DNA of 64,000 nucleotides from contig CP084166.1 of NCBI GenBank assembly GCA_021513695.1, positions 384,001 to 448,000 of the forward strand, written 5' to 3'. A program made the translations under genes and the position numbers. This DNA comes from Candidatus Heimdallarchaeum aukensis (GTDB taxonomy: Archaea; Asgardarchaeota; Heimdallarchaeia; Heimdallarchaeales; Heimdallarchaeaceae). Below the pieces are notes generated by a model. That model worked only from the letters and a program-made list of their open reading frames with translations. It was not told the origin of the DNA and searched no databases. Of this stretch, positions 7,877-29,130 are shown piece after piece (position 1 is the first letter of the stretch; each line of letters begins with the position of its first letter).

Positions 7877-7920
7877 ATGAATCCAACTTTTAATAAATCA
7901 TCATTTCAACATTTAATCAG

Positions 7921-9000
7921 GTGAAAAAAATGAACAAGAAACTAACCACATATTTGGCTATTACAGGAGTATTATTTTTAGTACTTATGAGTTCTTTACC
8001 ACTAACTTCTTTGGCTTACAAAGAAGATAATGTAAATGTAGGTAAAGATAATGGATCTTTTATTATTGATACTCCACTATTAAAAGTAAAGCTAATGGAC
8101 AATAAACCTGATATTATGTTCTGGATTGCAAACGATACTGATTCGAATAAAAGAAACCCTGTACCTGCTTATCACGTAGGATTCAACTATGTAACAGAGC
8201 TATTTGGAGATGATTTAGTAGTAGATAACAGAACTGAACTCGGTGGAAAATCATACAATTTAGCAGCAATTGATTGGACTTTAACAACTGAAAATTATAC
8301 TAACGAAATTGTTTCAACTTTAACTTCTGAGATTTTATCTAATGGTGCAACAATTAGTTTTATTTTCCATGTTTTCACAGAAGATACAACTGTTACAAGA
8401 GTATTAAATGATAGCACTACTGTGACCTATGATGTAAAAGCTCTCTCTGAAGTCAAATTTGATATTGTTGTTTCAAATTGGACCTTCACAGAAGGAGCAG
8501 TAGGATTAACTTTTATTACAACTATACATGAACTTGCATATAGACACAGAGTAAGGGCAGGAAATGCTACACATACCCAAGGTGAAACAGAAAATAGAAA
8601 CAGTACTGAAACCTATCCAAGCGATAAAAGAAATAATGACCCTGAAAGATGGGGTGTAGAATTTACTGATGAAAAAGGAAATCTACAAAGCTATTTTGCT
8701 TGGACACCAGAAGCTGATGTTTTTGATGCAGACGACAATTACTTAAAAACGGTAAACGTAACTGCCACTACAGCTGAGAAAGGTTTCAAAGAAACAGATC
8801 ACTTTAACAAAAGATTTGGAATTGATTACTTATTCCTCTACCTTACTTATCCAAATTACGGAGACAATTTAAAACTTGTACACGACCCAACAATTGGAGT
8901 AGTTGAAAGTACAGGCGGTATTTCATGGTCAACAACTGCATCAATAGTCTTACCTTTAGTAATCGTAGGTTTAATAGTAATAAATAGAAGAAGAAAATAA
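7921..9000 (+). CDS. secreted cell-surface protein with C-terminal TM anchor
   Basis: N-terminal signal peptide, many N-x-S/T sequons, and a C-terminal hydrophobic helix followed by RRRK. Confidence 0.55.
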   Translation: MKKMNKKLTTYLAITGVLFLVLMSSLPLTSLAYKEDNVNVGKDNGSFIIDTPLLKVKLMDNKPDIMFWIANDTDSNKRNPVPAYHVGFNYVTELFGDDLVVDNRTELGGKSYNLAAIDWTLTTENYTNEIVSTLTSEILSNGATISFIFHVFTEDTTVTRVLNDSTTVTYDVKALSEVKFDIVVSNWTFTEGAVGLTFITTIHELAYRHRVRAGNATHTQGETENRNSTETYPSDKRNNDPERWGVEFTDEKGNLQSYFAWTPEADVFDADDNYLKTVNVTATTAEKGFKETDHFNKRFGIDYLFLYLTYPNYGDNLKLVHDPTIGVVESTGGISWSTTASIVLPLVIVGLIVINRRRK

Positions 9001-9819
9001 TTATCCTTTTTCTTTCTTTTTACTTTTTTTCATTTTACTTAAACTTTTAGCGTATTCTAAAGCTTCTTTGTATCTTTCTATAGTCTCAACTTGTAATTCG
9101 TCATCTGAATCTAAATTGGAAATTTTTTCTCTTAAAGTTCTTATAAAGAGTTTGAGTTCATCATCAGGAAGTTCTTCAATTATTGTCTTCGCCAAAGAAA
9201 TATTAGCTGTATCGACATTCGGAATGTCTAATTCTAAAGGGTTTTTTTCCCATTCTTCTATAGAATAAGCTAATTGTTCTGTTCCTAAAAGATCTATTAT
9301 TTGATCAATCTTGAAAGGAACAAGTTCTTTAAATCTTTTAAAGGCATTAGCATATTTTTCACTTTCTGCAATCCTAGTTGCAAAAAATCTGTCTGTTGGA
9401 AACAGAATTTTGACAGCACTTAATACAAAAGTACCTGACTGAAAAATCAAAACTAATGAGTTTGCTTCTGTTGAGTTTTCATTTGGTGAGGATAGAAAAG
9501 CCTTTTCCAATCTCTCTTTGTTGGTTAGTTTCCATATTCTTCTTAATAACTTTATTTCAAAAGCTCCTTTTACCTTCTTATTTTTACTTTCAATGAATAT
9601 TATGTAATCTTTTTTTCTAATTGTTCCAGTGTAATTTTTCCTTAATTGAGTTAGATCTACTTCTTCTCCTTCTTCTTTCTTCTCTCTATAATAAAAAATA
9701 ATTTTCTTCTCACTACTAATGAAAGATTTTTTACTTTCAGTTACCTCTCTGTCTGTGTCTCTAAGAAGTAAAATCTTCTCAAGAATAAAAGGAAGATTTT
9801 CTTCAGAAACATCAATCAT
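9001..9819 (-). CDS. hypothetical protein (Lys/Glu-rich)
   Basis: Long ORF with coding-like composition and no recognisable motif. Confidence 0.4.
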   Translation of the reverse strand: MIDVSEENLPFILEKILLLRDTDREVTESKKSFISSEKKIIFYYREKKEEGEEVDLTQLRKNYTGTIRKKDYIIFIESKNKKVKGAFEIKLLRRIWKLTNKERLEKAFLSSPNENSTEANSLVLIFQSGTFVLSAVKILFPTDRFFATRIAESEKYANAFKRFKELVPFKIDQIIDLLGTEQLAYSIEEWEKNPLELDIPNVDTANISLAKTIIEELPDDELKLFIRTLREKISNLDSDDELQVETIERYKEALEYAKSLSKMKKSKKKEKG

Positions 9820-9855
9820 AAAAGAACTATATGAAAATAAGTTTTTAACCTTTGC

Positions 9856-11205
9856 TCAATTTTGACAATATTTTTTAAAAACTTTAAATAGGTATAATTG
9901 TTTGATGTACCAGTCGTGATAAGGTTTAGGATCGTATTCTTTAGGAATTTTAGTATAGTGGTTGAAAATGTAGTTAATTTTTCTCAAACCTTTCAAAAAT
10001 CTATAAGTAGTTTTTATGTCTGTCAGTCCCTTGAAGAATTTAACTAAAAAATCGAAAAATGTCTGTTTGGGATATTTATTAAGAAACATCCTGTGTATTT
10101 CTGCTTTACTAATTAATCCTTTGCTGAATAAAAAGTATAACTTTTCTTTATCAAAACTCAAAATAAGGCTTCTAAAAGCTTCTAAAGCTGCAAGATGTCT
10201 TCCAGCTATTTTGAAAAATTCTACATGATATTTCCATAATCGATAGATTGATACTTCTTTTTTCTGTAAGGCATCTAAAATTACTTCAGATAGAATGTTT
10301 AAAGCAATAAGAGATAAATTCTTCCCTTCAACAGTGAAAGGATTTGTCTGAAATGCTGCTTCTCCAATTGAAAGAAAACCATACCAAGCTAGAGTTATTG
10401 GTCTTCTTACAACAACTTTTTCTGAAAAGGAATTTATAGGTGAAAGGTTTATTCCTTTAGATCTGTTAATTATTTCATTAGTTACAGCTTTTGCTTTTCT
10501 TTTTGTGAGATTCTTGTTAACAACAGTGAAAAAAGATAGAGTATTATTTTCTTTTTCTACATTAGTTACAAACTCTCTATCGAATAAACAGTAGAAAGAA
10601 TCACCTTCTAGCTGGATTTGGTTGAGTATCTTTTCACTTTTCTCGATTTTATTTCTGGAATAAAAAGTATCAACATATTCTTTAGAGGAAATTTTTATGT
10701 TTAGGTCAAGTATTTCGATGTTTTTAGTCAAAATTCGTTCTGTTCCTGAACAGTCGACAATGATTTTTCCATTAACTATTTTCCCTTCTTTTGTTTTTAC
10801 ACCAATAACCCATTGCCCTCTTCCTACAGGGTCAGTAATTTCTGTTTCAAAATTGAACTTTGCTCCCGCTTTAATCGCACTTTCAACCATGTAATTGATA
10901 TATTCCTTAAGGTTGAACCTAACATATTCTCTTTTTTGTAAGGAAATAGAGAAATTTAAATCACTAGAATAAAAGAAAGTTTTTCTAACAACATTTTCTA
11001 TGTCCTTGTAGGTTTGAAGAAGTTTAGAAGAGTTGAAAATTTTTTTATCTAAATATATGATTTGATCTTGTCCAATTTCTTCTCTTTTCTTCTTATCAAA
11101 TACAATCACTTTTTTTCCAGTAATAGCTAAACTAAAAGCTAGAGTTGCTCCTGTGAAACCAGTACCTACAATTATTACATCATATTGTTCTTCTTTCTTT
11201 GACAT
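9856..11205 (-). CDS. FAD-dependent oxidoreductase (geranylgeranyl-reductase-like)
   Basis: N-terminal Rossmann dinucleotide motif DVIIVGTGFTGATLAFSLA...VIVFDKK. Size and layout fit the FAD-dependent reductase family. Confidence 0.55.
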   Translation of the reverse strand: MSKKEEQYDVIIVGTGFTGATLAFSLAITGKKVIVFDKKKREEIGQDQIIYLDKKIFNSSKLLQTYKDIENVVRKTFFYSSDLNFSISLQKREYVRFNLKEYINYMVESAIKAGAKFNFETEITDPVGRGQWVIGVKTKEGKIVNGKIIVDCSGTERILTKNIEILDLNIKISSKEYVDTFYSRNKIEKSEKILNQIQLEGDSFYCLFDREFVTNVEKENNTLSFFTVVNKNLTKRKAKAVTNEIINRSKGINLSPINSFSEKVVVRRPITLAWYGFLSIGEAAFQTNPFTVEGKNLSLIALNILSEVILDALQKKEVSIYRLWKYHVEFFKIAGRHLAALEAFRSLILSFDKEKLYFLFSKGLISKAEIHRMFLNKYPKQTFFDFLVKFFKGLTDIKTTYRFLKGLRKINYIFNHYTKIPKEYDPKPYHDWYIKQLYLFKVFKKYCQN

Positions 11206-11266
11206 TAAGTAAGCTTTCAGAATGAATTATTTGAACATTTTCTATTGCTTTGTTAGAGAGTGGATT

Positions 11267-11896
11267 TTACCCTGTTCCTCCAGTCACTAGTTCAAGCAAA
11301 AATGTTAGTAATGCAAGAATTATAATTGCTGGGAGAATTTTTAATGCGTAGATAATCTTATTTTCTTTTGAAATTGCTCCTAAAAGCATCCCCAGAATCA
11401 CTACTTCTACGACTATTAGAGAAATAGATATAATGTATCCCACTTGCATATTAAAAGCTTTAACTAGAACTAATAGAAACGGTGAAATTGAAATCGTGGC
11501 AAAGAGAAAGGGAGACAATCCATCTACAGCTGAAATGATCCAAGAGACCTTTAAATTTGCTTTGGCGAGCCTGGTGTTATTTAAGTTTGTAATCATATCT
11601 GCTTCCAAATCTTTAATTTCTTTAGTTCTTTCTGCTCGTTCAGTAAGATAAGCTATCCAAAAGCCTGAGATGCCCATAGCCATAGAAGCACTTATTCCAA
11701 GGATCAGCAATGTTTTAGCAGCAACCATGTCTTGTTCAGGGGTGCCAGACTTGAAACCGTGAGCTATCATCGATCCTATTATTAACCCTAAAGCTGTTAA
11801 AGCTCCATCAAAACCATTCATCACAAAATACCTGCGAAGGATATTTTCTCCTCCAGTTAAGGTGAGAATTTTACCTATGTCATTATCACTTTTCAA
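11267..11896 (-). CDS. VIT1/CCC1-family membrane protein
   Basis: RYFVMNGFDGALTALGLIIG segment typical of the VIT/DUF125 family. Five hydrophobic helices. Confidence 0.45.
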   Translation of the reverse strand: MKSDNDIGKILTLTGGENILRRYFVMNGFDGALTALGLIIGSMIAHGFKSGTPEQDMVAAKTLLILGISASMAMGISGFWIAYLTERAERTKEIKDLEADMITNLNNTRLAKANLKVSWIISAVDGLSPFLFATISISPFLLVLVKAFNMQVGYIISISLIVVEVVILGMLLGAISKENKIIYALKILPAIIILALLTFLLELVTGGTG

Positions 11897-12048
11897 TTTT
11901 GTATTCCCAAAGAAAACTTCTAAAATATTTTTTTTTGAATTCTTTAAAGATTTTTCGGAATGAATGTTTTTTTAAATAAGTTACTTTTTCACTTTCAAAC
12001 AAGTGTCTAAAAAAGATTTTAAATAGTATAAGATTTAGAAAAATAAAG

Positions 12049-13362
12049 ATGCAAACTTTCTTTGACTCAGCTTTAGAAGCAGAATTTAATAAAATATACG
12101 AAAAATTGAAAAAACTTGAACGAAAAAACGATGACGAGTATCAAAGTGACTTGTCTTTCCTACTTGAACATTTTAGGATTTTTGAACCACTTGATACTAC
12201 TTGTCAAAGAGAAGACTTTAGCGTTTCTGCAATAGATGGGAGTGGAGCCAGCGATTTAATTAAATTGAATAATATTTCAGTACACCTTATCACTGCAGGC
12301 TTTTCTGCAGATCAAACAGATTTTAAAAAAGGAACCACAACAGAATTAGATATTAGACCTGAAATTAGTACATATCCCAACGGTGTAACTAAACTTGTTT
12401 TAATAAGAGAAGATGAAGAACTAGAAGTATGGGAAGAAATTACCAATTTTGTAAGAGAAAATTATGGTAAAGAACCAAAAGAAATAGTTTTTGATGTTCT
12501 TAGGACCATGATTTTAAGAAAAATGGAAAATGAAGGTAAAGATATTTCCAAAATACGAATAAAAAACACTTTCGAATTATTACATCAAGCTAAACTTGCA
12601 GGTTTTACTCTTTATAATAAACCATTAGAAAAATTTCATGAATGGATGATAAGTCCGAGACCACAGACTGGATGGTATGACCAGTTTAGAGAAATATTAG
12701 AATATTCTCTGGCATTTTCTATTTTGAAAACTAATAAAAAAATAAAATATTTATTCATTGATGGTTCAATGAACATGCTAATCTCAAAGAATCATAATCA
12801 ACCAAGATTAATTTCTAATTACCTTTTACGTGATTTATGTACAGAAGCTCTAAAGCGAGACACATGTGTAGTAGCTGTAAGTAAAACAACTACTTTTCCT
12901 TTTATTTACAAAATAGCTCAAGATGTTAGAAATCATCTTAAAGGAGAAAAAAAATGGTTTTTCCGTGTTCCTTCTAAGGAATTAGGAGAGACTCCTCTTC
13001 GTCTGTTAGAAGGAAAAAGTATTCCTCCAGAGAATGCTATTACTTATCTTTTCCATTTTTCTGCAGATTTACCTGTTTTAAGGATAGACTTCGATTTAGA
13101 TTGGTGGAAGAAGAATATTCATTCAGAAGATAAAGAAAAAGAGAAAGAGAGAGAAGTTGAGATGTTTAAAGAAATTGATTGGTTGTCTCGAGATGTAAGA
13201 TATCATGGTTATCTTTTTGATCTTGCTTTCTCTCATTTTAATGCTCTAATAACTTTCAAAGAGAGAGATTTAATTGCGGATAGATTAATTGATTTCTTTA
13301 CTGAAAAAGGTGAAGATCCAAGGAGATATATACACCCAAGAAAAAGATTAGGATTAATGTAA
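12049..13362 (+). CDS. nurA: NurA-like 5'-3' nuclease
   Basis: Conserved IDGS motif (SAIDGSGASD) near the N-terminus as in NurA. Sits directly upstream of herA-mre11-rad50. A TATA-like ttttaaata lies ~30 nt before the ATG, suggesting a leaderless first gene. Confidence 0.5.
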   Translation: MQTFFDSALEAEFNKIYEKLKKLERKNDDEYQSDLSFLLEHFRIFEPLDTTCQREDFSVSAIDGSGASDLIKLNNISVHLITAGFSADQTDFKKGTTTELDIRPEISTYPNGVTKLVLIREDEELEVWEEITNFVRENYGKEPKEIVFDVLRTMILRKMENEGKDISKIRIKNTFELLHQAKLAGFTLYNKPLEKFHEWMISPRPQTGWYDQFREILEYSLAFSILKTNKKIKYLFIDGSMNMLISKNHNQPRLISNYLLRDLCTEALKRDTCVVAVSKTTTFPFIYKIAQDVRNHLKGEKKWFFRVPSKELGETPLRLLEGKSIPPENAITYLFHFSADLPVLRIDFDLDWWKKNIHSEDKEKEKEREVEMFKEIDWLSRDVRYHGYLFDLAFSHFNALITFKERDLIADRLIDFFTEKGEDPRRYIHPRKRLGLM

Positions 13363-13374
13363 AAAGGTGAAAAA

Positions 13375-15255
13375 ATGGTAAAATTAGAATTAACAGAACC
13401 AATAGGAATATTAGCAGAAGGAGATATCTCATCGTTAAAAGTGATATCAAAGGATATTAGATATCAAGTTGGTGAAATATTAATTATCACCCATCCTGAA
13501 ACTCCGGAAATCTATTTGTTTCGGGTGATGAATTATGAAAATATTCTCCGATCAAGTTCTGATATGAGCTATGTTGCTTCAAATATTTTGAAAAACAGAA
13601 CAGCATATATTGCGAGGGTAGAAAATGAGAAAATGGTAAAAGTATCTGGAATCTTGATGGGTTACTCTCTTTATGATGAAAATAAGAAAAAGTGGATTCT
13701 ACATAAACCTCGCTCTCTCCCTCCTCATTTTTCATATGTTTATCGAGGGTCTGAGTGTAAAGCAGCCTTACAAGATCTCTTATGGTCAGAATTTGGTAAT
13801 GATATAGAAATAGGAAAATTACAAGTAGGTGCTACAACCTTAGATATCCCAATTAAACTAGATGTAGAAGCTCTTCCAATGCATGTACAAGTAGCAGGAA
13901 CAACAGGAGCAGGAAAATCTTTCTTCATGTTGACAATGATTACTTCAAGTCTTAAAAATAATGTAATTAACGCTTTAAAACCTTCAAAGGCAGATACTAT
14001 TAACAAGAAAATTTCTTTCTTCATGGTAGACGTACATGATGAATACATGAGAGGAATGAAAGAACCTGAAACAAATGCAAGATATGGTATAAAAGATATA
14101 GCTGAAGCAAGCTTAAAGCAAGATAAAGATATTTACAACCTTCTATTTGGAAAGAATTTCTATCTTACTTCTGATATGGAAAGTGTAGAAAAAGATATGC
14201 AAAAATATGCTAAAGCCTTACGTTTCAGACTTGAAGATATAGAGGTAAGTGATATCATTTCAGTAATGGAAGTCACAGATCAAATGGCTTCATTCATGTA
14301 TTGGATTAAATCTCATAATGAAAATTGGATTTCAACTATTTTAGAATTAGGAGAAGAAGATGATCAAGGAGGATTTTCTAAAGGGACAGTAAATGCAGTA
14401 AAAAGAAGGCTCAGGAGTATATACAACTCTCCTATTTTCAGAGAGTCGAGAACTATCACAACTTCTGATGAAAAAAATCAAGAACAATCAAGCGTTAGTT
14501 TTAGTGATTTAGCAGAAATAGTTTACAATTTAGAACAAGGACATTTCTATAATTTTAGTTCAGCACTATTAAGTTCGACAGAACAATTTATCGTTTTAAC
14601 TATGTTAGCAAGAACAATCTTTGCTTTAAGACAATCTTTAATGTCTTCTACAAGATGGTCTCAGTTTGAAAAACAAGTAGAGTCAAGATTACCAAGACAA
14701 ATAAGTAACGAATTGCTAGGAAAAACAAATTCTTCTTTTTCGATAAAGGATCTCTATATTAAAAATAAAGAAGGAAACGACTATATTCTTAAAAAAGTGA
14801 ATGAACTTCCTGTAATTCTTCTCACAATTGAAGAAGCTCCAAGTATTTTGGGAGTACAGATGTCTAAACAAGGAAATGTGTTCGTTGACATTAGTAGACA
14901 AGGAAGAAAGTTTGGAATAGGCATGTTACTTATTACTCAAAATATTTCAGCGATGGAACCTTTGATTTTAGCCAATACAAACACAGAAATAAACATGATG
15001 CTAGGAAATGAGATAGAGATAAAACAAGCAATCATCAACGCCAGTAACAACATTACAGGATACGAACATGAGTTTAGAGTATTAAACAGAGGTGAAGCTA
15101 TAGTTACTAACTCTTTACGCAATATTCCCATGCCTGTGAAGATACACAATGCACCAGTTTTAATTAAAGAAAATTTGTCTTTCTTTGAAAATCCTTATGA
15201 TAGTTTGAAAATAAAAAAAGAAAAAAGGATATCTAAAGATATTCCTCTTCTTTAA
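13375..15255 (+). CDS. herA: HerA-type hexameric ATPase/helicase
   Basis: N-terminal HAS-barrel-like region, Walker A VAGTTGAGKSFF, Walker B LLTIEEAP, and GRKFGIGMLLITQ. SD aggtga lies 6 nt before the ATG. Confidence 0.7.
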   Translation: MVKLELTEPIGILAEGDISSLKVISKDIRYQVGEILIITHPETPEIYLFRVMNYENILRSSSDMSYVASNILKNRTAYIARVENEKMVKVSGILMGYSLYDENKKKWILHKPRSLPPHFSYVYRGSECKAALQDLLWSEFGNDIEIGKLQVGATTLDIPIKLDVEALPMHVQVAGTTGAGKSFFMLTMITSSLKNNVINALKPSKADTINKKISFFMVDVHDEYMRGMKEPETNARYGIKDIAEASLKQDKDIYNLLFGKNFYLTSDMESVEKDMQKYAKALRFRLEDIEVSDIISVMEVTDQMASFMYWIKSHNENWISTILELGEEDDQGGFSKGTVNAVKRRLRSIYNSPIFRESRTITTSDEKNQEQSSVSFSDLAEIVYNLEQGHFYNFSSALLSSTEQFIVLTMLARTIFALRQSLMSSTRWSQFEKQVESRLPRQISNELLGKTNSSFSIKDLYIKNKEGNDYILKKVNELPVILLTIEEAPSILGVQMSKQGNVFVDISRQGRKFGIGMLLITQNISAMEPLILANTNTEINMMLGNEIEIKQAIINASNNITGYEHEFRVLNRGEAIVTNSLRNIPMPVKIHNAPVLIKENLSFFENPYDSLKIKKEKRISKDIPLL

Positions 15256-15288
15256 TAATAGAATCAAAAATAATTTGAATGAAAGAAG

Positions 15289-16570
15289 GTGAAATTAGTG
15301 GTAAAAATAGCTCATATGTCTGATACTCATTTATCACATAGAAGAGTAAGAAATGTTAGAGATAGTTGGAAAGAAAGATATAGAGTAAGTTGGATAGAGA
15401 ATGACTTTTCATTAGCTTTTCAAAGAGCTTTAGATGCAGCTATTGAAACTAAATGTGATTTTCTAGTTCATTCAGGAGATTTGTTTGATGTTCCTGTAAA
15501 AAGAAATACAACTTCACCTTCTGAATATGCAAGAGCTATTGCAATAAGTGAAATAAGAAGATTTTTGGAAGCTACACATTTTAAAGTACCTATAATTATA
15601 ATTGATGGAAATCATGGAACTTATCTTTACAGGAATAATAGTACTATAGAATTCATAAAATCAGCTTTCCCTGAAAATGTGTTTATAGCCACAAATTATG
15701 ACCTTAAACGAGCAATAGTAAAAAATGAACCTTTGAAAGTAGAGTTTGAAGAGATTAACTTTTATCTGTTTCCTTATTTAGAATTCAAATCTATGGCTAA
15801 TTATGAAGAACTCTATGATGAATGGATAAGTAAATGCCAAGAGCCTGAAGACGGAAAAATTAATGTTGCAGTAGCTCACGGAATGTTTAGGAATTTGGAT
15901 TTGCATGAAAAATTATTCTCTTTTCCTTATGATTATGTAGCTTTAGGACACGATCACCAACAAAGAAAATATGCTCCAAACGCTTGGCAAGCAGGAAGTA
16001 CAGAAAAATATACCTTTGCTGAAAGAGGACAAGAAAAGTATTTTAGAAGTTATTATTGAGAAAGGAAAAAATTTACACATTAATCCAATAAAGGTTGTTA
16101 GCCAAAGAGAAATGAAACAATTCGAAGTAGAATTAAGTTCAGACATGAGTGCATTAACTGTAGAAGAAAAAATAAGAGAACTTGTAGCAAGTTATAGAAA
16201 GAACTTTGATGGAAACACAGCTGCGAGAATAAAAGTTAAGTTACAAGGAAAAACTTCTCTCTCCTACTGGTGGACAATAGAAGATCGTTTAGTAGAAATA
16301 CAGAAAAATGTTCTAACTGAAGAATATAACATCCTAGAATTTAGATGGGATGAAGAAGAGTTAAAGAAATCTATACCTCAAAGCCTAGCCAAAACACCAC
16401 AAATGGATCAATACCTAATTGAAGATCCAGTCAGGGATTTTGTAAATTATTTGAAAAACTTAGAAATAGATGATGAAGTAAAATTTGAACAATATGCAAA
16501 ACTAGGACCAGAAATAATTAAAGAGGTTTTTAGTGAAGGATTTATTTCTTCAAAGGAGGAGTTAGAATGA
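15289..16570 (+). pseudogene. mre11: Mre11 nuclease, copy 1, frameshifted
   Basis: Same sequence as the intact 427-aa copy, but caagaaaaaggtatttt is caagaaaagtatttt here (-2 bp). This splits the gene into the 15289-16059 and 15971-16570 ORFs. Phosphoesterase motifs HMSDTHL, GDLFD and GNHG are in the first part and GHDHQ is in the second. Confidence 0.65.
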
Positions 16571-18699
16571 AAATTCTTTGGATACACATGGAGAATTTTA
16601 AATGCTACCGCAATGAGAGGATTCCAGAAACAGGTATCCTTCCAAAAGGATTGATTTTTGTAGAGGGAGAGAATTCGGTAGGAAAAACTTCTTTGTTTGA
16701 TGCAATATATTACGCTCTTTTTTACGAACCTACAAAGGACAAAGCCATTTTAGGTACAAAAGATATGCTAGTAAAAAGAGGAGAAAAAGAGACTATCGTA
16801 GAAGTTGCTTTTGAAATAATGAATAAATACTTTGTAGTACAAAAGCAACATGGAATATCAACTCCTCTAAAAGTAGTTTTACTTCAAATTGATAGAGAGA
16901 TGGCTGAAAAAGGAGAATTAAAAAATCCCATTAAAATAGCAGAAGGACTAGAGGATGTAAACAAGAAATTGTTTGAACTATTAAATATCACAAGCGAAAG
17001 CGTGTTGAGCACTCTAATAGTAAATCAAGGAGAAGTGCAAAAACTAGCAGAAGCTAAAGGAGCAGAACTTAGAGATATAATTTACAAACTTTTTCATTTA
17101 GATGATATAAGAGAAAAGTTGAAACGTGTGATTAATAGAAAAATGGAGATTTTAGATGAAGAATGGGAAAAATACAAAATTGAGCGCACAACAGAGAATA
17201 TTCTTGAAGAAATTAAAGAAATAGAGATAGAGAAAGAAACGAAAGAGAAAGAGTTAGTAAAAGCAAAAAATGAACTGGAAAAAATAGAAGAGAAAATCTC
17301 TCAATATCCTAAACATGAAGATATTCAATCAATAAGCAATATTTTAACTCAAATACAGCAAACCAAAGAAACTATTTCTAAGCAAGAAAGAATAATTAAA
17401 CAAAAATCTGAAACTTTAGAAATCAAGGAACTAACACAAGAAGAAATAAAGGATAAAATCTTAGAAATAGAGAAGATTATTCAGAAAACTAACAATAACA
17501 TAGAAAATTTAAGAAACAAAAGAGATAAAGTCCAGAAAAAGTTGCATAGTCTCCAAAGAGATCTTGCTGAAATAAAAGAAAAAATCAAGAAACTAGAAAG
17601 TCATGAAGTAGGACATGAAGAAGATTTTACTTGCGAATTATGCGAACAAACGATGCCCTACTCGAAATTTAAGGAATTAGTAGAGAGTAAAAAACAATCA
17701 ATTACAAATATTGAATTAGGGATTAAGAAAAGAACTGCAGAAAAAAGAGAAGTAGAGAAACAAATTGAAAAAGAAAGCAATTATATTAATAAGCTAAAAG
17801 AACAAATTTTTTCACTTAATAATGTCAAAGATAGGCTAGATAATCTAGAGAATAACAAGAAAGAATTGGATAAAAAACAAAATAATTTAATAACACAACT
17901 TAAAAAATTCAAAGTCCAGACAGTTGATCAGCTTTCAAAGAAATATAATGTCGAAAACTTTGAGGAATTCTTTTCAATTATAAGTCAACTGAAATCTGAT
18001 AAAGCTAGTCTAAATGCATCAATAAGTCATCTAAATAAAACTATTGAAAAACTAAAACAAAGGAAAAATCAATTAGAAAAAGAAATAGACAAAAATAAGG
18101 AAAAGGAAGAGAAACAAGAGAGTATTCTTCAAGAACAAGCTGCACTAAAAGATGTAGAAGGTGTAGTTTCAAGTTTTATAGCTGAGGAGCTAATCTCCAA
18201 TAGATTGCTTGCAGGAATACAGCAGACAACTAATCCTAATATAAACTTGTTTACGAGAGGAAAATACTCAGAGATATATCTAGAAGCAACTACAAAGAAA
18301 ACTTTAAGGTTAAGCGTTTTAGACAAAGAAGAAGAATTCGTAAAAAATCAAGAGTTCCTTTCAGGAGGAGATAAAGCAGCTATAGGACTAGGATTGAGAT
18401 TAGGTATAAGCGAATTACTAAAACAAATTAGACCATTCAAAGATTCTCCTCATAATCCTCCAAGGATGGATATAATGATACTTGATGAGCCTTTGGGTTC
18501 ACTTGATAGTGAAAGAAGGAAAAAAGTTCTAGAAGGATTGTTGATACAGAAGAAATTCAGTCAAATATTTCTGATTACACATACAAATGTTAGAGAAGAA
18601 CTTCGAGCTCCTTCAATTCGAGTAAGTAGAACAGAAAAAGGTAGCTCTACAGCCTATTACCCTGCTCCAAGTAAAATAGAGTTAGAATCTGAAGAATGA
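16567..18699 (+). CDS. rad50: Rad50 ABC-type ATPase, copy 1
   Basis: Walker A GENSVGKTS, central coiled coil with CxxC zinc hook (FTCELCEQ), signature LSGGDKAA and Walker B MILDEP. SD ggagg lies 8 nt upstream. Start overlaps the mre11 stop. Confidence 0.8.
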   Translation: MKILWIHMENFKCYRNERIPETGILPKGLIFVEGENSVGKTSLFDAIYYALFYEPTKDKAILGTKDMLVKRGEKETIVEVAFEIMNKYFVVQKQHGISTPLKVVLLQIDREMAEKGELKNPIKIAEGLEDVNKKLFELLNITSESVLSTLIVNQGEVQKLAEAKGAELRDIIYKLFHLDDIREKLKRVINRKMEILDEEWEKYKIERTTENILEEIKEIEIEKETKEKELVKAKNELEKIEEKISQYPKHEDIQSISNILTQIQQTKETISKQERIIKQKSETLEIKELTQEEIKDKILEIEKIIQKTNNNIENLRNKRDKVQKKLHSLQRDLAEIKEKIKKLESHEVGHEEDFTCELCEQTMPYSKFKELVESKKQSITNIELGIKKRTAEKREVEKQIEKESNYINKLKEQIFSLNNVKDRLDNLENNKKELDKKQNNLITQLKKFKVQTVDQLSKKYNVENFEEFFSIISQLKSDKASLNASISHLNKTIEKLKQRKNQLEKEIDKNKEKEEKQESILQEQAALKDVEGVVSSFIAEELISNRLLAGIQQTTNPNINLFTRGKYSEIYLEATTKKTLRLSVLDKEEEFVKNQEFLSGGDKAAIGLGLRLGISELLKQIRPFKDSPHNPPRMDIMILDEPLGSLDSERRKKVLEGLLIQKKFSQIFLITHTNVREELRAPSIRVSRTEKGSSTAYYPAPSKIELESEE

Positions 18700-18775
18700 T
18701 TCTTTTTTCATTATCTTTATCTTTTTTGAGAATAATATTTATATCTAAAAATGGAAATGTTCTCTAGGGTTTGAA

Positions 18776-20146
18776 ATGATACCTGGAACACTTAGACCTT
18801 TACCAAAAAGATTAGCTAAAGTAAAAACAGAAGCTGAAAGGCTTTTTAGAGCAGTGGACTATGATTACGAGACTATTAAAGAAATACTAAAATCTAGTAA
18901 AAATTTTGAATTTGAAGAAATAAGAAGACAATATATTAATTGTATAAATCATCACATAAGAATAGTTCCACTCGTAAAAGAAGCAGATAAATTGTTAGTT
19001 AAATATTCAAGAGATCCACTTCTAAAAGAAATGGTTTTCAAACTATTTGATAAGTTGGAAAAATATGAATACAGATTGAATGGTGATATTCAACGACTTG
19101 ATACTATTTTAATGTCGAAAAGAAAAGAATACATCAATAAAACAATTCCACTAGTGAAATCAGAAATAAGAAGCAAGTTATCTTTCTTAAGAGACCTAGA
19201 TTTTGAGCAATTACTCGCTGACAGTGAAAAATATTCTGCTATTATTTCAGGCATCGTAGATCGTGTAAATATATTAAAAGACGAGTATCAAAAATTAATC
19301 GAAAATGCTCTTGAAAGCGCAGTAGAAGCTTATAAAGAGTTAAAAGAAAAACTAGACGAACTTGAAGATGAACTAAAAGAGTATGTTCTTATTCTTGCTA
19401 CTTGTAAGATGGAATTGCTAATTAACGATTCAAAAACTTTGCTTGAAGAAGGAGTTAAAATATTCGAACGTTTTGAATTAGAACAAACAACTGAACTCAT
19501 AGAAGAAGCACAAGAGTACCTAGAAAAAGCAAAACCAACTCTAAAAGAGATGAATGAATTAAAGGTAGATATTCCTAAAAAAGCAATGAAAAAGAGCTTT
19601 GAAACAAAATTCCGAGAATTAAGAAATAAATTCGAAGAAAATAAATTTACTCTAGATGAATTGATAAACAACATCGAAACTAGAAATAGGTTACTATCGA
19701 CAAATATTGAAAGAATTGATGCATTAAAAGAGCTAGCAAAATCAATGTCGAGTGACATCAAAGAAACAGGAGAAATATTAAAAATAAAAAGAATGGGTAC
19801 ATTTAAACTATACTTGAAAGAAAATCTTATTCCACACATGGAGTTGCAAGAAAATGGTATAGTAAAAATACCAAAGGCAGAAGAACTCACGGCAACTTTT
19901 ATAGATGAAATAATCTTGACTCTTGAAGATGTAGATAATAAAAATATAGTTAAGGACTGGTTCAATGCTTTTAGAGCAACAAAAGTAGGTAAGTGGATAT
20001 ATGAAACTTCAATCAAAATTAAAAATAAAATAGTAGACATAACAAAGAAGATTGTAAAAAAAACTAAAAAATGGATCCAAGAAATGAAAGAAAAAAGAGA
20101 ACAGAAAAAATCGCAAGAAAATCAACAAAAAGAAGAGAAGAAATAG
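18776..20146 (+). CDS. coiled-coil protein of unknown function, copy 1
   Basis: 456 aa, highly alpha-helical and E/K-rich. Co-duplicated with mre11-rad50. Confidence 0.55.
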   Translation: MIPGTLRPLPKRLAKVKTEAERLFRAVDYDYETIKEILKSSKNFEFEEIRRQYINCINHHIRIVPLVKEADKLLVKYSRDPLLKEMVFKLFDKLEKYEYRLNGDIQRLDTILMSKRKEYINKTIPLVKSEIRSKLSFLRDLDFEQLLADSEKYSAIISGIVDRVNILKDEYQKLIENALESAVEAYKELKEKLDELEDELKEYVLILATCKMELLINDSKTLLEEGVKIFERFELEQTTELIEEAQEYLEKAKPTLKEMNELKVDIPKKAMKKSFETKFRELRNKFEENKFTLDELINNIETRNRLLSTNIERIDALKELAKSMSSDIKETGEILKIKRMGTFKLYLKENLIPHMELQENGIVKIPKAEELTATFIDEIILTLEDVDNKNIVKDWFNAFRATKVGKWIYETSIKIKNKIVDITKKIVKKTKKWIQEMKEKREQKKSQENQQKEEKK

Positions 20147-20311
20147 CAACATTATGTGATTTTGTGTTTTTGTGTAAAAATTCTCTATTTTTTTGTTAAA
20201 TTTATTACTATATAATAATGAATACAAAAAGAAATTAGGTTGAAATTATATCATTCATTGAATTTTTGAAAAAATTTTTGCCAAAAAAAATAAATATTTA
20301 GTTATATATAT

Positions 20312-20542
20312 GTGGTATGTATTAAAATGACTTCAGATTCATCTTGTTATTGTATTGTAAGAATAACTTGGCCTAAATGGATAGTTGCAACTGGACAGAT
20401 AGCTTTAGGTATTGGAATACTCTTATTGATCATTTTTTCGATCTTTTACACAAAGACAAGTTGGGAAAATTTTTCGCTATACGGAATCTACGTGGGAGCA
20501 GGTTTTTTGCTACTTGGGGCACTAATTAGCTATAGTTACTAA
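20312..20542 (+). CDS. small two-TM membrane protein, copy 1 with chimeric 3' end created by the duplication junction
   Basis: Identical to 25743-25979 up to ...LLGALI, then reads into the junction (SYSY*) instead of LSSNDW*. Confidence 0.4.
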   Translation: MVCIKMTSDSSCYCIVRITWPKWIVATGQIALGIGILLLIIFSIFYTKTSWENFSLYGIYVGAGFLLLGALISYSY

Positions 20543-20687
20543 CTCTTTACGCAATATTCCCATGCCTGTGAAGATACACAATGCACCAGTTTTAATTAAA
20601 GAAAATTTGTCTTTCTTTGAAAATCCTTATGATAGTTTGAAAATAAAAAAAGAAAAAAGGATATCTAAAGATATTCCTCTTCTTTAA
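20528..20687 (+). pseudogene. duplicated 3' fragment of herA (last ~53 codons)
   Basis: Exact copy of 15096-15255 (…TNSLRNIPMPVKIHNAPVLIKENLSFFENPYDSLKIKKEKRISKDIPLL*) with no 5' part. Confidence 0.6.
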
Positions 20688-20720
20688 TAATAGAATCAAA
20701 AATAATTTGAATGAAAGAAG

Positions 20721-22004
20721 GTGAAATTAGTGGTAAAAATAGCTCATATGTCTGATACTCATTTATCACATAGAAGAGTAAGAAATGTTAGAGATAGTTG
20801 GAAAGAAAGATATAGAGTAAGTTGGATAGAGAATGACTTTTCATTAGCTTTTCAAAGAGCTTTAGATGCAGCTATTGAAACTAAATGTGATTTTCTAGTT
20901 CATTCAGGAGATTTGTTTGATGTTCCTGTAAAAAGAAATACAACTTCACCTTCTGAATATGCAAGAGCTATTGCAATAAGTGAAATAAGAAGATTTTTGG
21001 AAGCTACACATTTTAAAGTACCTATAATTATAATTGATGGAAATCATGGAACTTATCTTTACAGGAATAATAGTACTATAGAATTCATAAAATCAGCTTT
21101 CCCTGAAAATGTGTTTATAGCCACAAATTATGACCTTAAACGAGCAATAGTAAAAAATGAACCTTTGAAAGTAGAGTTTGAAGAGATTAACTTTTATCTG
21201 TTTCCTTATTTAGAATTCAAATCTATGGCTAATTATGAAGAACTCTATGATGAATGGATAAGTAAATGCCAAGAGCCTGAAGACGGAAAAATTAATGTTG
21301 CAGTAGCTCACGGAATGTTTAGGAATTTGGATTTGCATGAAAAATTATTCTCTTTTCCTTATGATTATGTAGCTTTAGGACACGATCACCAACAAAGAAA
21401 ATATGCTCCAAACGCTTGGCAAGCAGGAAGTACAGAAAAATATACCTTTGCTGAAAGAGGACAAGAAAAAGGTATTTTAGAAGTTATTATTGAGAAAGGA
21501 AAAAATTTACACATTAATCCAATAAAGGTTGTTAGCCAAAGAGAAATGAAACAATTCGAAGTAGAATTAAGTTCAGACATGAGTGCATTAACTGTAGAAG
21601 AAAAAATAAGAGAACTTGTAGCAAGTTATAGAAAGAACTTTGATGGAAACACAGCTGCGAGAATAAAAGTTAAGTTACAAGGAAAAACTTCTCTCTCCTA
21701 CTGGTGGACAATAGAAGATCGTTTAGTAGAAATACAGAAAAATGTTCTAACTGAAGAATATAACATCCTAGAATTTAGATGGGATGAAGAAGAGTTAAAG
21801 AAATCTATACCTCAAAGCCTAGCCAAAACACCACAAATGGATCAATACCTAATTGAAGATCCAGTCAGGGATTTTGTAAATTATTTGAAAAACTTAGAAA
21901 TAGATGATGAAGTAAAATTTGAACAATATGCAAAACTAGGACCAGAAATAATTAAAGAGGTTTTTAGTGAAGGATTTATTTCTTCAAAGGAGGAGTTAGA
22001 ATGA
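20721..22004 (+). CDS. mre11: Mre11 nuclease (intact, 427 aa)
   Basis: Calcineurin-like phosphoesterase motifs I-V present (D-x-H, GDLFD, GNHG, VAVAHG and GHDHQ), followed by the Mre11 capping/C-terminal region. Confidence 0.85.
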   Translation: MKLVVKIAHMSDTHLSHRRVRNVRDSWKERYRVSWIENDFSLAFQRALDAAIETKCDFLVHSGDLFDVPVKRNTTSPSEYARAIAISEIRRFLEATHFKVPIIIIDGNHGTYLYRNNSTIEFIKSAFPENVFIATNYDLKRAIVKNEPLKVEFEEINFYLFPYLEFKSMANYEELYDEWISKCQEPEDGKINVAVAHGMFRNLDLHEKLFSFPYDYVALGHDHQQRKYAPNAWQAGSTEKYTFAERGQEKGILEVIIEKGKNLHINPIKVVSQREMKQFEVELSSDMSALTVEEKIRELVASYRKNFDGNTAARIKVKLQGKTSLSYWWTIEDRLVEIQKNVLTEEYNILEFRWDEEELKKSIPQSLAKTPQMDQYLIEDPVRDFVNYLKNLEIDDEVKFEQYAKLGPEIIKEVFSEGFISSKEELE

Positions 22005-24130
22005 AAATTCTTTGGATACACATGGAGAATTTTAAATGCTACCGCAATGAGAGGATTCCAGAAACAGGTATCCTTCCAAAAGGATTGATTTTTGTAGAGG
22101 GAGAGAATTCGGTAGGAAAAACTTCTTTGTTTGATGCAATATATTACGCTCTTTTTTACGAACCTACAAAGGACAAAGCCATTTTAGGTACAAAAGATAT
22201 GCTAGTAAAAAGAGGAGAAAAAGAGACTATCGTAGAAGTTGCTTTTGAAATAATGAATAAATACTTTGTAGTACAAAAGCAACATGGAATATCAACTCCT
22301 CTAAAAGTAGTTTTACTTCAAATTGATAGAGAGATGGCTGAAAAAGGAGAATTAAAAAATCCCATTAAAATAGCAGAAGGACTAGAGGATGTAAACAAGA
22401 AATTGTTTGAACTATTAAATATCACAAGCGAAAGCGTGTTGAGCACTCTAATAGTAAATCAAGGAGAAGTGCAAAAACTAGCAGAAGCTAAAGGAGCAGA
22501 ACTTAGAGATATAATTTACAAACTTTTTCATTTAGATATAAGAGAAAAGTTGAAACGTGTGATTAATAGAAAAATGGAGATTTTAGATGAAGAATGGGAA
22601 AAATACAAAATTGAGCGCACAACAGAGAATATTCTTGAAGAAATTAAAGAAATAGAGATAGAGAAAGAAACGAAAGAGAAAGAGTTAGTAAAAGCAAAAA
22701 ATGAACTGGAAAAAATAGAAGAGAAAATCTCTCAATATCCTAAACATGAAGATATTCAATCAATAAGCAATATTTTAACTCAAATACAGCAAACCAAAGA
22801 AACTATTTCTAAGCAAGAAAGAATAATTAAACAAAAATCTGAAACTTTAGAAATCAAGGAACTAACACAAGAAGAAATAAAGGATAAAATCTTAGAAATA
22901 GAGAAGATTATTCAGAAAACTAACAATAACATAGAAAATTTAAGAAACAAAAGAGATAAAGTCCAGAAAAAGTTGCATAGTCTCCAAAGAGATCTTGCTG
23001 AAATAAAAGAAAAAATCAAGAAACTAGAAAGTCATGAAGTAGGACATGAAGAAGATTTTACTTGCGAATTATGCGAACAAACGATGCCCTACTCGAAATT
23101 TAAGGAATTAGTAGAGAGTAAAAAACAATCAATTACAAATATTGAATTAGGGATTAAGAAAAGAACTGCAGAAAAAAGAGAAGTAGAGAAACAAATTGAA
23201 AAAGAAAGCAATTATATTAATAAGCTAAAAGAACAAATTTTTTCACTTAATAATGTCAAAGATAGGCTAGATAATCTAGAGAATAACAAGAAAGAATTGG
23301 ATAAAAAACAAAATAATTTAATAACACAACTTAAAAAATTCAAAGTCCAGACAGTTGATCAGCTTTCAAAGAAATATAATGTCGAAAACTTTGAGGAATT
23401 CTTTTCAATTATAAGTCAACTGAAATCTGATAAAGCTAGTCTAAATGCATCAATAAGTCATCTAAATAAAACTATTGAAAAACTAAAACAAAGGAAAAAT
23501 CAATTAGAAAAAGAAATAGACAAAAATAAGGAAAAGGAAGAGAAACAAGAGAGTATTCTTCAAGAACAAGCTGCACTAAAAGATGTAGAAGGTGTAGTTT
23601 CAAGTTTTATAGCTGAGGAGCTAATCTCCAATAGATTGCTTGCAGGAATACAGCAGACAACTAATCCTAATATAAACTTGTTTACGAGAGGAAAATACTC
23701 AGAGATATATCTAGAAGCAACTACAAAGAAAACTTTAAGGTTAAGCGTTTTAGACAAAGAAGAAGAATTCGTAAAAAATCAAGAGTTCCTTTCAGGAGGA
23801 GATAAAGCAGCTATAGGACTAGGATTGAGATTAGGTATAAGCGAATTACTAAAACAAATTAGACCATTCAAAGATTCTCCTCATAATCCTCCAAGGATGG
23901 ATATAATGATACTTGATGAGCCTTTGGGTTCACTTGATAGTGAAAGAAGGAAAAAAGTTCTAGAAGGATTGTTGATACAGAAGAAATTCAGTCAAATATT
24001 TCTGATTACACATACAAATGTTAGAGAAGAACTTCGAGCTCCTTCAATTCGAGTAAGTAGAACAGAAAAAGGTAGCTCTACAGCCTATTACCCTGCTCCA
24101 AGTAAAATAGAGTTAGAATCTGAAGAATGA
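22001..24130 (+). CDS. rad50: Rad50 ABC-type ATPase, copy 2
   Basis: Identical to copy 1 except for a one-Asp deletion (HLDIREK versus HLDDIREK). Confidence 0.8.
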   Translation: MKILWIHMENFKCYRNERIPETGILPKGLIFVEGENSVGKTSLFDAIYYALFYEPTKDKAILGTKDMLVKRGEKETIVEVAFEIMNKYFVVQKQHGISTPLKVVLLQIDREMAEKGELKNPIKIAEGLEDVNKKLFELLNITSESVLSTLIVNQGEVQKLAEAKGAELRDIIYKLFHLDIREKLKRVINRKMEILDEEWEKYKIERTTENILEEIKEIEIEKETKEKELVKAKNELEKIEEKISQYPKHEDIQSISNILTQIQQTKETISKQERIIKQKSETLEIKELTQEEIKDKILEIEKIIQKTNNNIENLRNKRDKVQKKLHSLQRDLAEIKEKIKKLESHEVGHEEDFTCELCEQTMPYSKFKELVESKKQSITNIELGIKKRTAEKREVEKQIEKESNYINKLKEQIFSLNNVKDRLDNLENNKKELDKKQNNLITQLKKFKVQTVDQLSKKYNVENFEEFFSIISQLKSDKASLNASISHLNKTIEKLKQRKNQLEKEIDKNKEKEEKQESILQEQAALKDVEGVVSSFIAEELISNRLLAGIQQTTNPNINLFTRGKYSEIYLEATTKKTLRLSVLDKEEEFVKNQEFLSGGDKAAIGLGLRLGISELLKQIRPFKDSPHNPPRMDIMILDEPLGSLDSERRKKVLEGLLIQKKFSQIFLITHTNVREELRAPSIRVSRTEKGSSTAYYPAPSKIELESEE

Positions 24131-24206
24131 TTCTTTTTTCATTATCTTTATCTTTTTTGAGAATAATATTTATATCTAAAAATGGAAATGTTCTCTAGGG
24201 TTTGAA

Positions 24207-25979: not shown

Positions 25980-26014
25980 GTAGAAGAAAGAAAAAGAAAA
26001 GGAAAAAAGAAACT

Positions 26015-29121: not shown

Positions 29122-29130
29122 GGAGTTAAA

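Follow-up and report, generated by a model that had tools for sequence, protein, structure and literature searches.

A probable single-copy DNA-end-resection operon of Candidatus Heimdallarchaeum aukensis and a family-specific gene downstream of rad50

Introduction

In Sulfolobus and the Thermococcales, a herA-mre11-rad50-nurA operon serves end resection in archaeal homologous recombination (PMC4351679, PMC3326311, PMC3300031). Genes of the same four families lie in a 64,000-nucleotide stretch of the genome of Candidatus Heimdallarchaeum aukensis (contig CP084166.1, positions 384,001 to 448,000; hereafter the window), where rad50 is followed by a gene for a 456-aa helical protein and a large part of the cluster appears twice. 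Does this locus represent a core repair operon or, as an earlier note on this DNA left open, a defence system, and do the genes behind rad50 belong to it? In the literature we found no account of this cluster, or of its fifth gene, in Asgard archaea. We propose that the locus is probably a single-copy chromosomal DNA-end-resection operon, the duplication in the record being most likely an artefact.

Results and Discussion

Gene order and expression signals

The earlier note described a complete same-strand array in the order nurA-herA-mre11-rad50. Order and strand are borne out (Table 1), but the array is not complete, as mre11 is split within 12049-20227. The nurA-like gene and herA are separated by 12 nt in the window and are adjacent in all related loci. 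Likewise, mre11 adjoins rad50 in all loci compared, with its stop codon and the rad50 start overlapping as ATGA. The Shine-Dalgarno (SD) boxes expected for the internal genes were found, GGTGA before herA and before the GTG start of mre11 (15298) and GGAGG before rad50. The TATA-like box expected about 30 nt from the first ATG is also present, at -32 to -24, and no SD precedes this ATG; the nurA-like gene is thus probably leaderless. Relatives carry a similar ATTTTAA(T/A)A box before nurA, but further upstream and together with a GGAGG SD. Both this TATA-like box upstream of nurA and the GGTGA of herA recur in relatives. A sigma-70 promoter and terminator scan performed no better than on shuffled sequence; sigma-70 models are not applicable to archaea.

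Table 1. Positions, within the window, of the genes, promoter-like elements and repeat copies
Feature	Position	Strand	Remark
TATA-like box TTTTAAATA	12017-12025	+	-32 to -24 from the nurA-like ATG
nurA-like	12049-13362	+	437-aa ORF; divergent NurA-like nuclease
herA	13375-15255	+	626-aa ORF; HerA/DUF87 hexameric translocase/helicase; GGTGA SD
Tandem repeat, copy 1	15096-20527	.	5432 bp; left edge inside the 3' end of herA
mre11, copy 1	15298-16570	+	frameshifted by a 2-bp deletion at 16038 (AAAAAGG to AAAAG)
rad50, copy 1	16567-18699	+	710-aa ORF; Rad50-like
TATA-like box TTTATATC	18738-18745	+	-38 to -31 from the ATG of the 456-aa gene
456-aa helical gene, copy 1	18776-20146	+	all-helical product
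72-aa antisense ORF	20009-20227	-	supplies the end coordinate of the earlier finding; overlaps the 456-aa gene at its Lys/Glu-rich 3' end
Small two-TM gene, copy 1	20327-20542	+	3' end replaced at the repeat junction
Tandem repeat, copy 2	20528-25958	.	5431 bp; opens with the herA 3' fragment, stops inside the small TM gene
Duplicated herA 3' fragment	20528-20687		start of repeat copy 2
mre11, copy 2	20730-22004	+	intact, 424 aa from GTG; GGTGA SD; ORF opens at 20721
rad50, copy 2	22001-24130	+	709 aa; one GAT (Asp) codon missing
456-aa helical gene, copy 2	24207-25577	+	identical to copy 1
Small two-TM gene, native	25758-25979	+	73 aa, intact; two hydrophobic segments

The 5.4-kb tandem repeat

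Two head-to-tail copies of a 5.4-kb segment are present in the window, with 0 mismatches and 2 indels between them. The segment starts with the final 53 codons of herA, runs through mre11, rad50 and the 456-aa gene and breaks off inside the small membrane gene. The first copy of mre11 is broken into two ORFs, 15289-16059 and 15971-16570. The 710-aa form of rad50 is the version found in independent assemblies; the 709-aa form occurs in the NCBI genome record only and is absent from L032, L033 and L034 (our labels for loci compared). L032 is a same-strain contig of 115.9 kb from an independent short-read assembly, recovered by look-up with the Rad50 sequence. It shows 0 mismatches over about 25 kb and runs through both repeat boundaries with one copy. 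The 40-mer across the junction (TGCTACTTGGGGCACTAATT followed directly by AGCTATAGTTACTAACTCTT) was not found in L032, nor was either indel, and the 2-bp deletion in mre11 is also missing from L033 and L034. No second copy was seen in L032, L033, L034 or L006. The locus is single-copy in two JGI contigs and in H. endolithica, the sister species, whose genome is closed, and no relative is duplicated at this locus among the related contigs compared.

As the same-strain short-read contig and the sister-species genome are both single-copy, the duplication is most likely a scaffolding artefact of the hybrid assembly, for which SPAdes contigs, LRScaf scaffolding and Nanopore reads from MDA-amplified DNA were used. 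Its simplest origin would be that two contigs with overlapping ends were joined one after the other, which would produce the duplication as well as both indels. A real and very recent tandem duplication, in which one mre11 was inactivated by the 2-bp deletion and one rad50 lost a codon by slippage, seems improbable to us. Both rad50 copies are annotated in the public genome record, the change from GATGAT to GAT is typical of slippage, and the genome paper describes abundant repeats in these genomes; in principle, a short-read assembler could also prune a junction carried by a minority of cells. However, L032 spans both boundaries with neither the junction nor the indels, the copies differ by no substitution, the relatives are not duplicated, and the scaffolding relied on the MDA-amplified reads. 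The junction itself points to no mechanism, because there is no microhomology at it. With the duplication taken as an artefact, neither the mre11 frameshift nor the 709-aa form of rad50 is biological.

The earlier note had regarded the 456-aa and two-TM genes as accessory components because they are duplicated together with rad50. The duplication does stand in the record, but it is absent from L032 and from the sister species, and the co-duplication therefore holds no functional information. The H. aukensis reference is one of only two closed Heimdallarchaeum genomes, and it most likely contains a false 5.4-kb tandem duplication, the source of an mre11 with a spurious frameshift, a rad50 that lacks one codon, a membrane gene cut short and a leftover piece of herA. 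Counts of paralogues and pseudogenes in this genome should allow for it.

HerA, Mre11 and Rad50

Profile searches, as suggested in the earlier note, recovered HerA/DUF87, Mre11 and Rad50, but not NurA, and all four enzymes score far under the NCBIfam equivalog cutoffs. HerA matches DUF87 with 47.2 bits (Pfam cutoff 23.2) and reaches 50 against an equivalog cutoff of 970. Its best PDB match is Thermococcus HerA (9x1l), and its Walker A (GTTGAGKS) and Walker B (LLTIEEAP) motifs are invariant in 23 relatives. Mre11 matches Metallophos with 42.7 bits (Pfam cutoff 21.5) and scores 42 against an equivalog cutoff of 550; in the PDB, bacterial SbcD ranks first, ahead of P. furiosus Mre11. The calcineurin-like phosphoesterase motifs I-V (DxH, GDxxD, GNH, H and GHxH) do not vary across 23 relatives.

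Rad50 matches AAA_23 with 51 bits (Pfam cutoff 27) and the NCBIfam Rad50 models with 113-120 bits, under their cutoffs of 700-1087. The same protein scores 83.6 bits with the model of archaea-specific SMC-related proteins (ASRP; own cutoff 300) and 78 bits with LmuB, and in the PDB it comes closest to Rad50 of M. jannaschii and P. furiosus. The split ABC head (Walker A, Q-loop, signature motif, Walker B, D-loop and H-loop, its halves parted by a coiled coil) is present, with GENSVGKTS, QG, LSGGD, LDEPL and ITHT, and the CxxC zinc hook in mid-coil, C356-E-L-C359, is invariant in 24 sequences. Judging from its sequence, the Rad50 found here is a divergent, short member of its family.

A NurA-like protein recognised by its predicted fold

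The 437-aa protein escaped all sequence searches. Neither the protein nor its 23-sequence alignment matched anything in Pfam, NCBIfam, PADLOC or the PDB sequences and profiles, and with the E limit relaxed to 1, Pfam NurA still matched 0 of the 23 family members. Fold comparison was the sole method that gave a match, finding in the predicted model a PIWI/RNase-H-like fold resembling solved NurA structures, with a model confidence that is only moderate (pLDDT 72). The NurA identity claimed in the earlier note, which hinged on an RNase-H-like fold, is thereby supported at the level of the model. D63 (AIDGSG, strand end), E215/E218 (helix), D238 (FIDGS, strand end) and H396 are invariant in 23 sequences. 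By their order they are candidate counterparts of the catalytic D51, E105, D126 and H411 of PfNurA; in the NurA-like protein, about 100 extra residues separate the strand of the first Asp from the helix that bears the Glu. The predicted fold indicates that Heimdallarchaeaceae encode a NurA family missed by current sequence profiles. Profile-based surveys would therefore wrongly score Heimdallarchaeaceae as NurA-less.

A probable core repair operon rather than a defence system

The same five-gene order, in single copy and with conserved upstream neighbours, is found in more than 20 species-level genomes. The neighbours of the cluster are housekeeping genes, encoding an H+-PPase, MsrB, a P-type ATPase and UvrA. 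Like the operon of Sulfolobus and the Thermococcales, the locus has the four families on one strand, with mre11 and rad50 coupled and herA adjacent to nurA, and the catalytic motifs, the zinc hook and the predicted PIWI/RNase-H-like fold of NurA are all present. It differs in its order (nurA-herA-mre11-rad50), in a NurA beyond the reach of any sequence profile, in a Rad50 of only 710 aa, in a host enriched at 37 °C, and in the fifth, family-specific gene that follows, L039 excepted. Archaeal Rad50 and HerA relatives outscore bacterial SbcCD and Deinococcus HerA-NurA, and here all four genes form one cluster.

If the locus works like the characterised archaeal system to which it is homologous, dimers of Mre11 and of Rad50 would recognise and trim DNA ends, with Rad50 acting as an ATP-driven clamp joined via its CxxC zinc hook. 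A HerA hexamer would then thread the duplex into a NurA dimer, which would degrade the 5' strand and leave 3' single-stranded DNA for RadA. What suggests this mechanism for the present locus is family or fold membership together with the conserved catalytic motifs.

HerA/NurA-like and SbcCD-like modules also belong to defence systems such as the TdpAB, HerA-associated and Lamassu types, and PADLOC returned generic HerA matches (60 bits or less) and the LmuB match, these only, with nothing specific to an anti-phage HerA, Lamassu or PbeC-type system and no credible match for the NurA-like, 456-aa and TM proteins. We nevertheless consider it very unlikely that the cluster is an anti-virus defence system, the role that the earlier note had left open. 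The Rad50 repair models beat LmuB (120 against 78 bits), and the TdpB score of the NurA-like protein is indistinguishable from its NurA score (12.4 and 11.5). No SIR2, DUF4297 or LmuA-type effector gene occurs in the cluster or the scanned neighbours, and a scan of viral contigs with the 456-aa family found no relatives. Furthermore, unlike patchy defence islands, the locus keeps, in more than 20 genomes, a fixed chromosomal position flanked by conserved housekeeping genes. TdpAB (PDB 8wet, consisting of TdpA and the NurA-like TdpB), which we take to be a defence system, shares only 10% sequence identity, and to our knowledge Mre11-Rad50 is not among its partners, whereas the pair described here sits in a fixed core-genome operon with Mre11-Rad50.

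We consider it just as unlikely that the 710-aa ATPase is an ASRP of the ClsN/Sph type rather than Rad50, which would place the cluster in chromosome organisation. ASRPs are short SMC-superfamily ATPases with a zinc hook that occur in Heimdallarchaeota (PMC9389158), and the NCBIfam ASRP model matches the protein, weakly, over nearly its full length. Because ASRPs share the hook, the CxxC motif alone does not discriminate between the two. However, the ASRP score is lower than those of the Rad50 models and far under its own cutoff, and the PDB sequence matches (E up to 1e-5) are Rad50 proteins and one weak match to E. coli SbcC. Translation of the gene is also coupled to that of an Mre11 whose nuclease site is intact, and we know of no ASRP described as coupled to an Mre11. 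We thus retain the assignment as Rad50 in an end-resection operon.

The 456-aa helical protein downstream of rad50

The 456-aa gene is real, conserved and restricted to Heimdallarchaeaceae. Its 31 homologues all come from this family, and a HMMER profile search of 1.84 billion representatives returned 13 matches, all family members, with no distant relatives. As the earlier note had supposed, the gene is kept behind rad50: it lies 47-76 nt after it on the same strand, down to 33% protein identity, in every informative contig (those with enough upstream DNA) except L039, an odd 1.2-kb contig. T-rich tracts after the rad50 stop precede TTTATATC, and relatives keep a CTTTCACAAGATTTTTCAATAAT element at the equivalent place; the gene probably has its own promoter. 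In the metagenome-assembled genome L031, the genes behind a second copy are those of the main locus, which is most simply explained by a second strain in the bin and not by a paralogue.

The N-terminus of the protein, MIPGTLRPLPK, is invariant, its core is acidic and its Lys-rich tail basic. The structure prediction called for in the earlier note gave an all-helical AF2 model (pLDDT 85) whose structural matches are only generic three-helix bundles and spectrin; the protein is predicted to be a rod of helical bundles. Searches of Pfam, NCBIfam and PADLOC gave noise only, including a weak Fzo_mitofusin coiled-coil match in 11 of the 31 members. The possibility that the protein is a detached Rad50 coiled coil was rejected, because hhalign of the family against the neighbouring Rad50 gave nothing.

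At present, the one link between this protein and repair is adjacency. We incline slightly to the reading that it is unconnected to DNA repair, a mere syntenic neighbour with its own promoter. Between it and rad50 lie T-rich tracts and a promoter-like element that is conserved, the synteny of the unrelated genes upstream is as good throughout the family, and neither fold nor sequence links it to any repair protein. On the other hand, it stays at the same close distance and on the same strand in all informative contigs but L039, and this adjacency survives the sole synteny break seen, where the TM and PPase genes of Heimdallarchaeum are replaced by a HAD hydrolase elsewhere. Tentatively, the protein might instead be an adaptor or scaffold, whose N-terminal peptide would dock on the repair machinery while its tail would touch DNA.

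Eukaryotic Mre11-Rad50 has third subunits or cofactors, Nbs1/Xrs2 and CtIP/Sae2. By analogy, a non-enzymatic and possibly scaffold-like partner may be encoded beside Mre11-Rad50 in an archaeon closely related to eukaryotes, although no sequence or fold similarity to these partners was detected and the 456-aa family is confined to Heimdallarchaeaceae. It is somewhat doubtful that the protein is a fifth component of Mre11-Rad50/HerA-NurA invented in Heimdallarchaeaceae, with MIPGTLRPLPK for docking and the basic tail on DNA; it would then be a functional analogue, not a homologue, of the non-enzymatic eukaryotic partners. The gene offers a cheap candidate Mre11-Rad50 partner in a lineage close to eukaryotes, next to the mere-neighbour reading that we slightly prefer.

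The small membrane gene

The earlier note ended the cluster with a two-TM gene at 20227. The 72-aa minus-strand ORF at that position is spurious, its frame being broken by stops in H. endolithica, and the real gene lies further downstream on the plus strand. Within the family, this small membrane gene is specific to the genus Heimdallarchaeum, and its place is taken elsewhere by the HAD hydrolase. It is called as a 73-aa gene in L032, and between the native gene and its conserved H. endolithica counterpart 25 codon changes are synonymous and 11 non-synonymous.

Composition of the resection operon

The window carries a system of known kind in a lineage where it was previously not described, and a family-specific gene follows rad50. 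The G+C content of the region is about 30%, and an H+-pyrophosphatase gene on the opposite strand comes next after the 78-aa ORF.

Features of the region, in window positions
Feature	Position	Strand	Remark
NurA-like ORF	12049-13362	+	437 aa
HerA ORF	13375-15255	+	626 aa
mre11 copy 1	15289-16059, 15971-16570	+	split ORF pair, 256 aa + 199 aa
rad50 copy 1	16567-18699	+	710 aa
456-aa gene copy 1	18776-20146	+	
mre11 copy 2 ORF	20721-22004	+	427 aa
rad50 copy 2	22001-24130	+	709 aa
456-aa gene copy 2	24207-25577	+	
Small ORF after 456-aa gene copy 2	25743-25979	+	78 aa
Small membrane-protein gene	ATG at 25758	+	73 aa, two hydrophobic segments
Leucine-rich-repeat protein	29131-29931	+	266 aa
Direct repeat	31483-31580, 32487-32584		98 nt, 95%
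Double-UvrA ORF	34656-40445	-	1929 aa
Inverted repeat	50347-50459, 60435-60547		113 nt, 97% complementary
NosD/beta-helix + TSP3 paralogues	55064-57118, 57303-59288	+	684 and 661 aa

HerA matched DUF87 above the Pfam threshold, with Thermococcus HerA as its best solved relative and the Walker A and B motifs invariant in 23 relatives. Mre11 matched Metallophos above threshold and has all five of the five phosphoesterase motifs invariant; its start is likely the GTG at 15298/20730 behind GGTGA, the same start being chosen by gene callers in relatives. Rad50 matched AAA_23 above threshold, and the NCBIfam Rad50 models scored the protein at 113-120 bits, against 84 for an archaea-specific SMC-related family and 78 for Lamassu LmuB. 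Its PDB matches were the Rad50 proteins of M. jannaschii and P. furiosus, and it carries Walker A, Q-loop, LSGGD, Walker B, H-loop and an invariant CxxC hook (C356/C359). The mre11 and rad50 genes overlap by ATGA. NCBIfam equivalog cutoffs were reached by none of the four enzymes, which by sequence are all divergent members of their families.

The 437-aa protein sequence found no match in Pfam, NCBIfam, PADLOC or PDB. A profile of 23 NurA-like homologues revealed nothing in PDB, and Pfam NurA was matched by none of the homologues, probably because about 100 additional helical residues separate the first Asp from the Glu. The NurA of H. aukensis is invisible to sequence profiles, and it is the RNase-H-like NurA fold that supports the identification made in the earlier note. 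The residues D63, E215/E218, D238 and H396 are invariant, in the order and with the Glu-to-Asp spacing of D51, E105, D126 and H411 in the P. furiosus NurA, and we infer their residue-level equivalence to these catalytic residues.

The element TTTTAAATA occupies positions -32 to -24 relative to the nurA-like ATG with no SD after it, which fits a leaderless first gene in the genus Heimdallarchaeum; in relatives, a similar box lies further upstream and GGAGG is present. The GGTGA of herA is conserved in relatives, and in the window mre11 has GGTGA and rad50 GGAGG, in agreement with the TATA-like box about 30 nt from the first ATG and the internal GGTGA/GGAGG boxes described earlier. The rad50 stop is followed by T-rich tracts. 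About 30-40 nt ahead of the ATG of the 456-aa gene there is a TATA-like element, and the motif CTTTCACAAGATTTTTCAATAAT is conserved at this place in relatives; a separate promoter for this gene is probable.

The tandem repeat

BLAST and direct comparison revealed that 15096-20527 and 20528-25958 form an exact head-to-tail repeat, with 0 mismatches and 2 indels. The left edge falls within herA, so that the last 53 herA codons recur at 20528-20687; the right edge cuts the small membrane-protein gene, whose copy 1 (20312-20542) therefore ends in foreign sequence. The mre11 ORF of copy 1 is split because 2 bp are missing (AAAAAGG to AAAAG at 16038), and rad50 of copy 2 is without one GAT. Relatives have an intact mre11 like copy 2 and Asp-Asp like copy 1, indicating one defect per copy. 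No microhomology was found at the repeat junction by direct comparison. The 456-aa and 710-aa proteins match proteins of Candidatus Heimdallarchaeum aukensis at 100% identity, and the genome of this organism was assembled from Illumina reads with SPAdes, scaffolded by LRScaf with Nanopore reads from MDA-amplified DNA and polished with pilon (PMC8813620).

The exact 710-aa Rad50 is also present on three further contigs, one of which is L032, an independent short-read contig of the same strain (Logan, 115,904 bp, run SRR15988954). L032 shows 0 mismatches to the window across 6569-20527 and 20528-31517, and contains the locus once, with NurA-like 437, HerA 626, intact Mre11 424, Rad50 710, the 456-aa protein, the 73-aa membrane protein and the pyrophosphatase. 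Both repeat-boundary 40-mers are continuous in L032, and a search of that contig found neither the junction 40-mer nor either indel. In a de Bruijn assembly, branches in the graph would be expected at both boundaries of a true tandem repeat; L032 runs straight through them, which speaks against a junction of appreciable frequency. A genuine duplication may be carried by a minority of cells. The locus is also single-copy in two JGI contigs (98.6% identical) and in the closed genome of the sister species H. endolithica. Over about 25 kb, the hybrid assembly departs from the short-read contig only by the repeat and by a single indel in each copy. Taking these comparisons together, the duplication and both indels are very probably assembly artefacts, and the simplest origin would be two contig ends overlapping by 5.4 kb that were concatenated instead of merged. 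The co-duplication of rad50 with the 456-aa and two-TM genes, previously read as a hint of a functional link, is most likely this assembly artefact.

Position 20227, where the cluster had been taken to end with a two-TM gene, is the start of a 72-aa Phe/Leu-rich ORF (20009-20227, minus strand) that runs antisense to the part of the 456-aa gene coding for its Lys/Glu-rich tail. This ORF is spurious, as stops break its frame in H. endolithica. The 73-aa gene is the real two-TM gene after rad50; it differs from that of H. endolithica by 25 synonymous and 11 non-synonymous codon changes and was found only inside the genus Heimdallarchaeum.

The 456-aa protein

The 456-aa protein has 31 homologues with identity down to about 38%; where a source is named, the label is Heimdallarchaeaceae, Heimdallarchaeota or Asgard archaea. 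A profile search of all 1.84 billion representative proteins yielded 13 matches, each a family member or fragment. The N-terminus MIPGTLRPLPK and the motif LIL(R/A)TC(K/R)M are almost invariant. The confident structural model (pLDDT 85) consists of long antiparallel helices and a small strand element; a relationship to the Rad50 coiled coil was considered, and the two proved unrelated on comparison. An acidic core (pI 5.6) contrasts with a basic stretch (pI 10) formed by the last 56 residues. Of the codon changes relative to H. endolithica, counted over 410 codons, 83 are synonymous and 32 non-synonymous, indicating that the gene is real and under purifying selection.

In the family alignment, 11 of the 31 members match Pfam Fzo_mitofusin (the mitofusin coiled-coil region) weakly, with a best E of 7e-5; these matches are probably compositional. 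Several members have a terminal acidic tail that bears a conserved IPxPP motif. A relative at 94% identity is represented by contigs of two MAGs, both of which break off at one position (L004 13889-14117, L005 8523-8751), 228 nt into the gene, and the partial homologue P0031 begins at residue 39, which suggests an assembly-graph branch inside the gene in these samples.

Neighbourhood and function

We compared 26 loci from species-level genomes and 5 from metagenomes, plus contigs fetched by exact protein look-up. Wherever the DNA suffices, the genes of NurA-like, HerA, Mre11, Rad50 and the 456-aa protein occur once each, in constant order and on the same strand, rad50 and the 456-aa gene being 47-76 nt apart, so that the retention of this gene downstream of rad50 held up. 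The only exception is L039 (BARU01007869.1), a 1165 bp metagenome contig in which the Rad50 C-terminus (minus strand) directly abuts the middle of the 456-aa gene (plus strand), and which looks chimeric. The divergent upstream genes encode a 209-aa protein (weak VIT1 match in relatives), an FAD oxidoreductase and a 272-aa protein; they are unrelated and no less conserved. Conserved adjacency in Heimdallarchaeaceae therefore gives weak support to a functional link. The sole synteny break seen comes immediately after the 456-aa gene, which is followed by the small membrane gene and pyrophosphatase in Heimdallarchaeum and by a HAD hydrolase in the rest.

The earlier note had left a defence role open, and the evidence favours a housekeeping repair operon over a defence system. 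The chromosomal position is fixed in more than 20 genomes, the neighbours are housekeeping genes (pyrophosphatase, MsrB, P-type ATPase and a fused double UvrA), scores are better against repair models than against defence models, and no relative of the 456-aa protein was found on viral contigs. As in Sulfolobus, the Mre11-Rad50 pair is coupled to HerA-NurA; herA, nurA, mre11 and rad50 are all four essential there (PMC4351679).

Other features of the window

The double-UvrA ORF consists of two fused units, with UvrA_inter and UvrA_DNA-bind matched twice each. In L001, a contig of a distant relative, a counterpart of 1920 aa is encoded about 8 kb downstream of the 456-aa gene, and the double UvrA thus seems conserved near the resection operon in Heimdallarchaeaceae. 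The leucine-rich-repeat protein lies downstream of the pyrophosphatase and is preceded by a 256-aa ORF without family match. The direct repeat is close to the 3' end of the P-type ATPase gene, a site at which the H. endolithica sequence is locally rearranged and inverted.

No tRNA or Rfam matches were found in the window. The arms of the inverted repeat are 9975 nt apart, each immediately preceding a gene start (50505, plus strand, for a winged-helix regulator; 60411, minus strand, for a 371-aa ORF), and may represent either a shared regulatory leader or the termini of an element. Between them lie a luciferase-like enzyme, an ABC transporter and NosD-like beta-helix proteins, and the tandem NosD/TSP3 paralogues are 68-80% identical at the DNA level.
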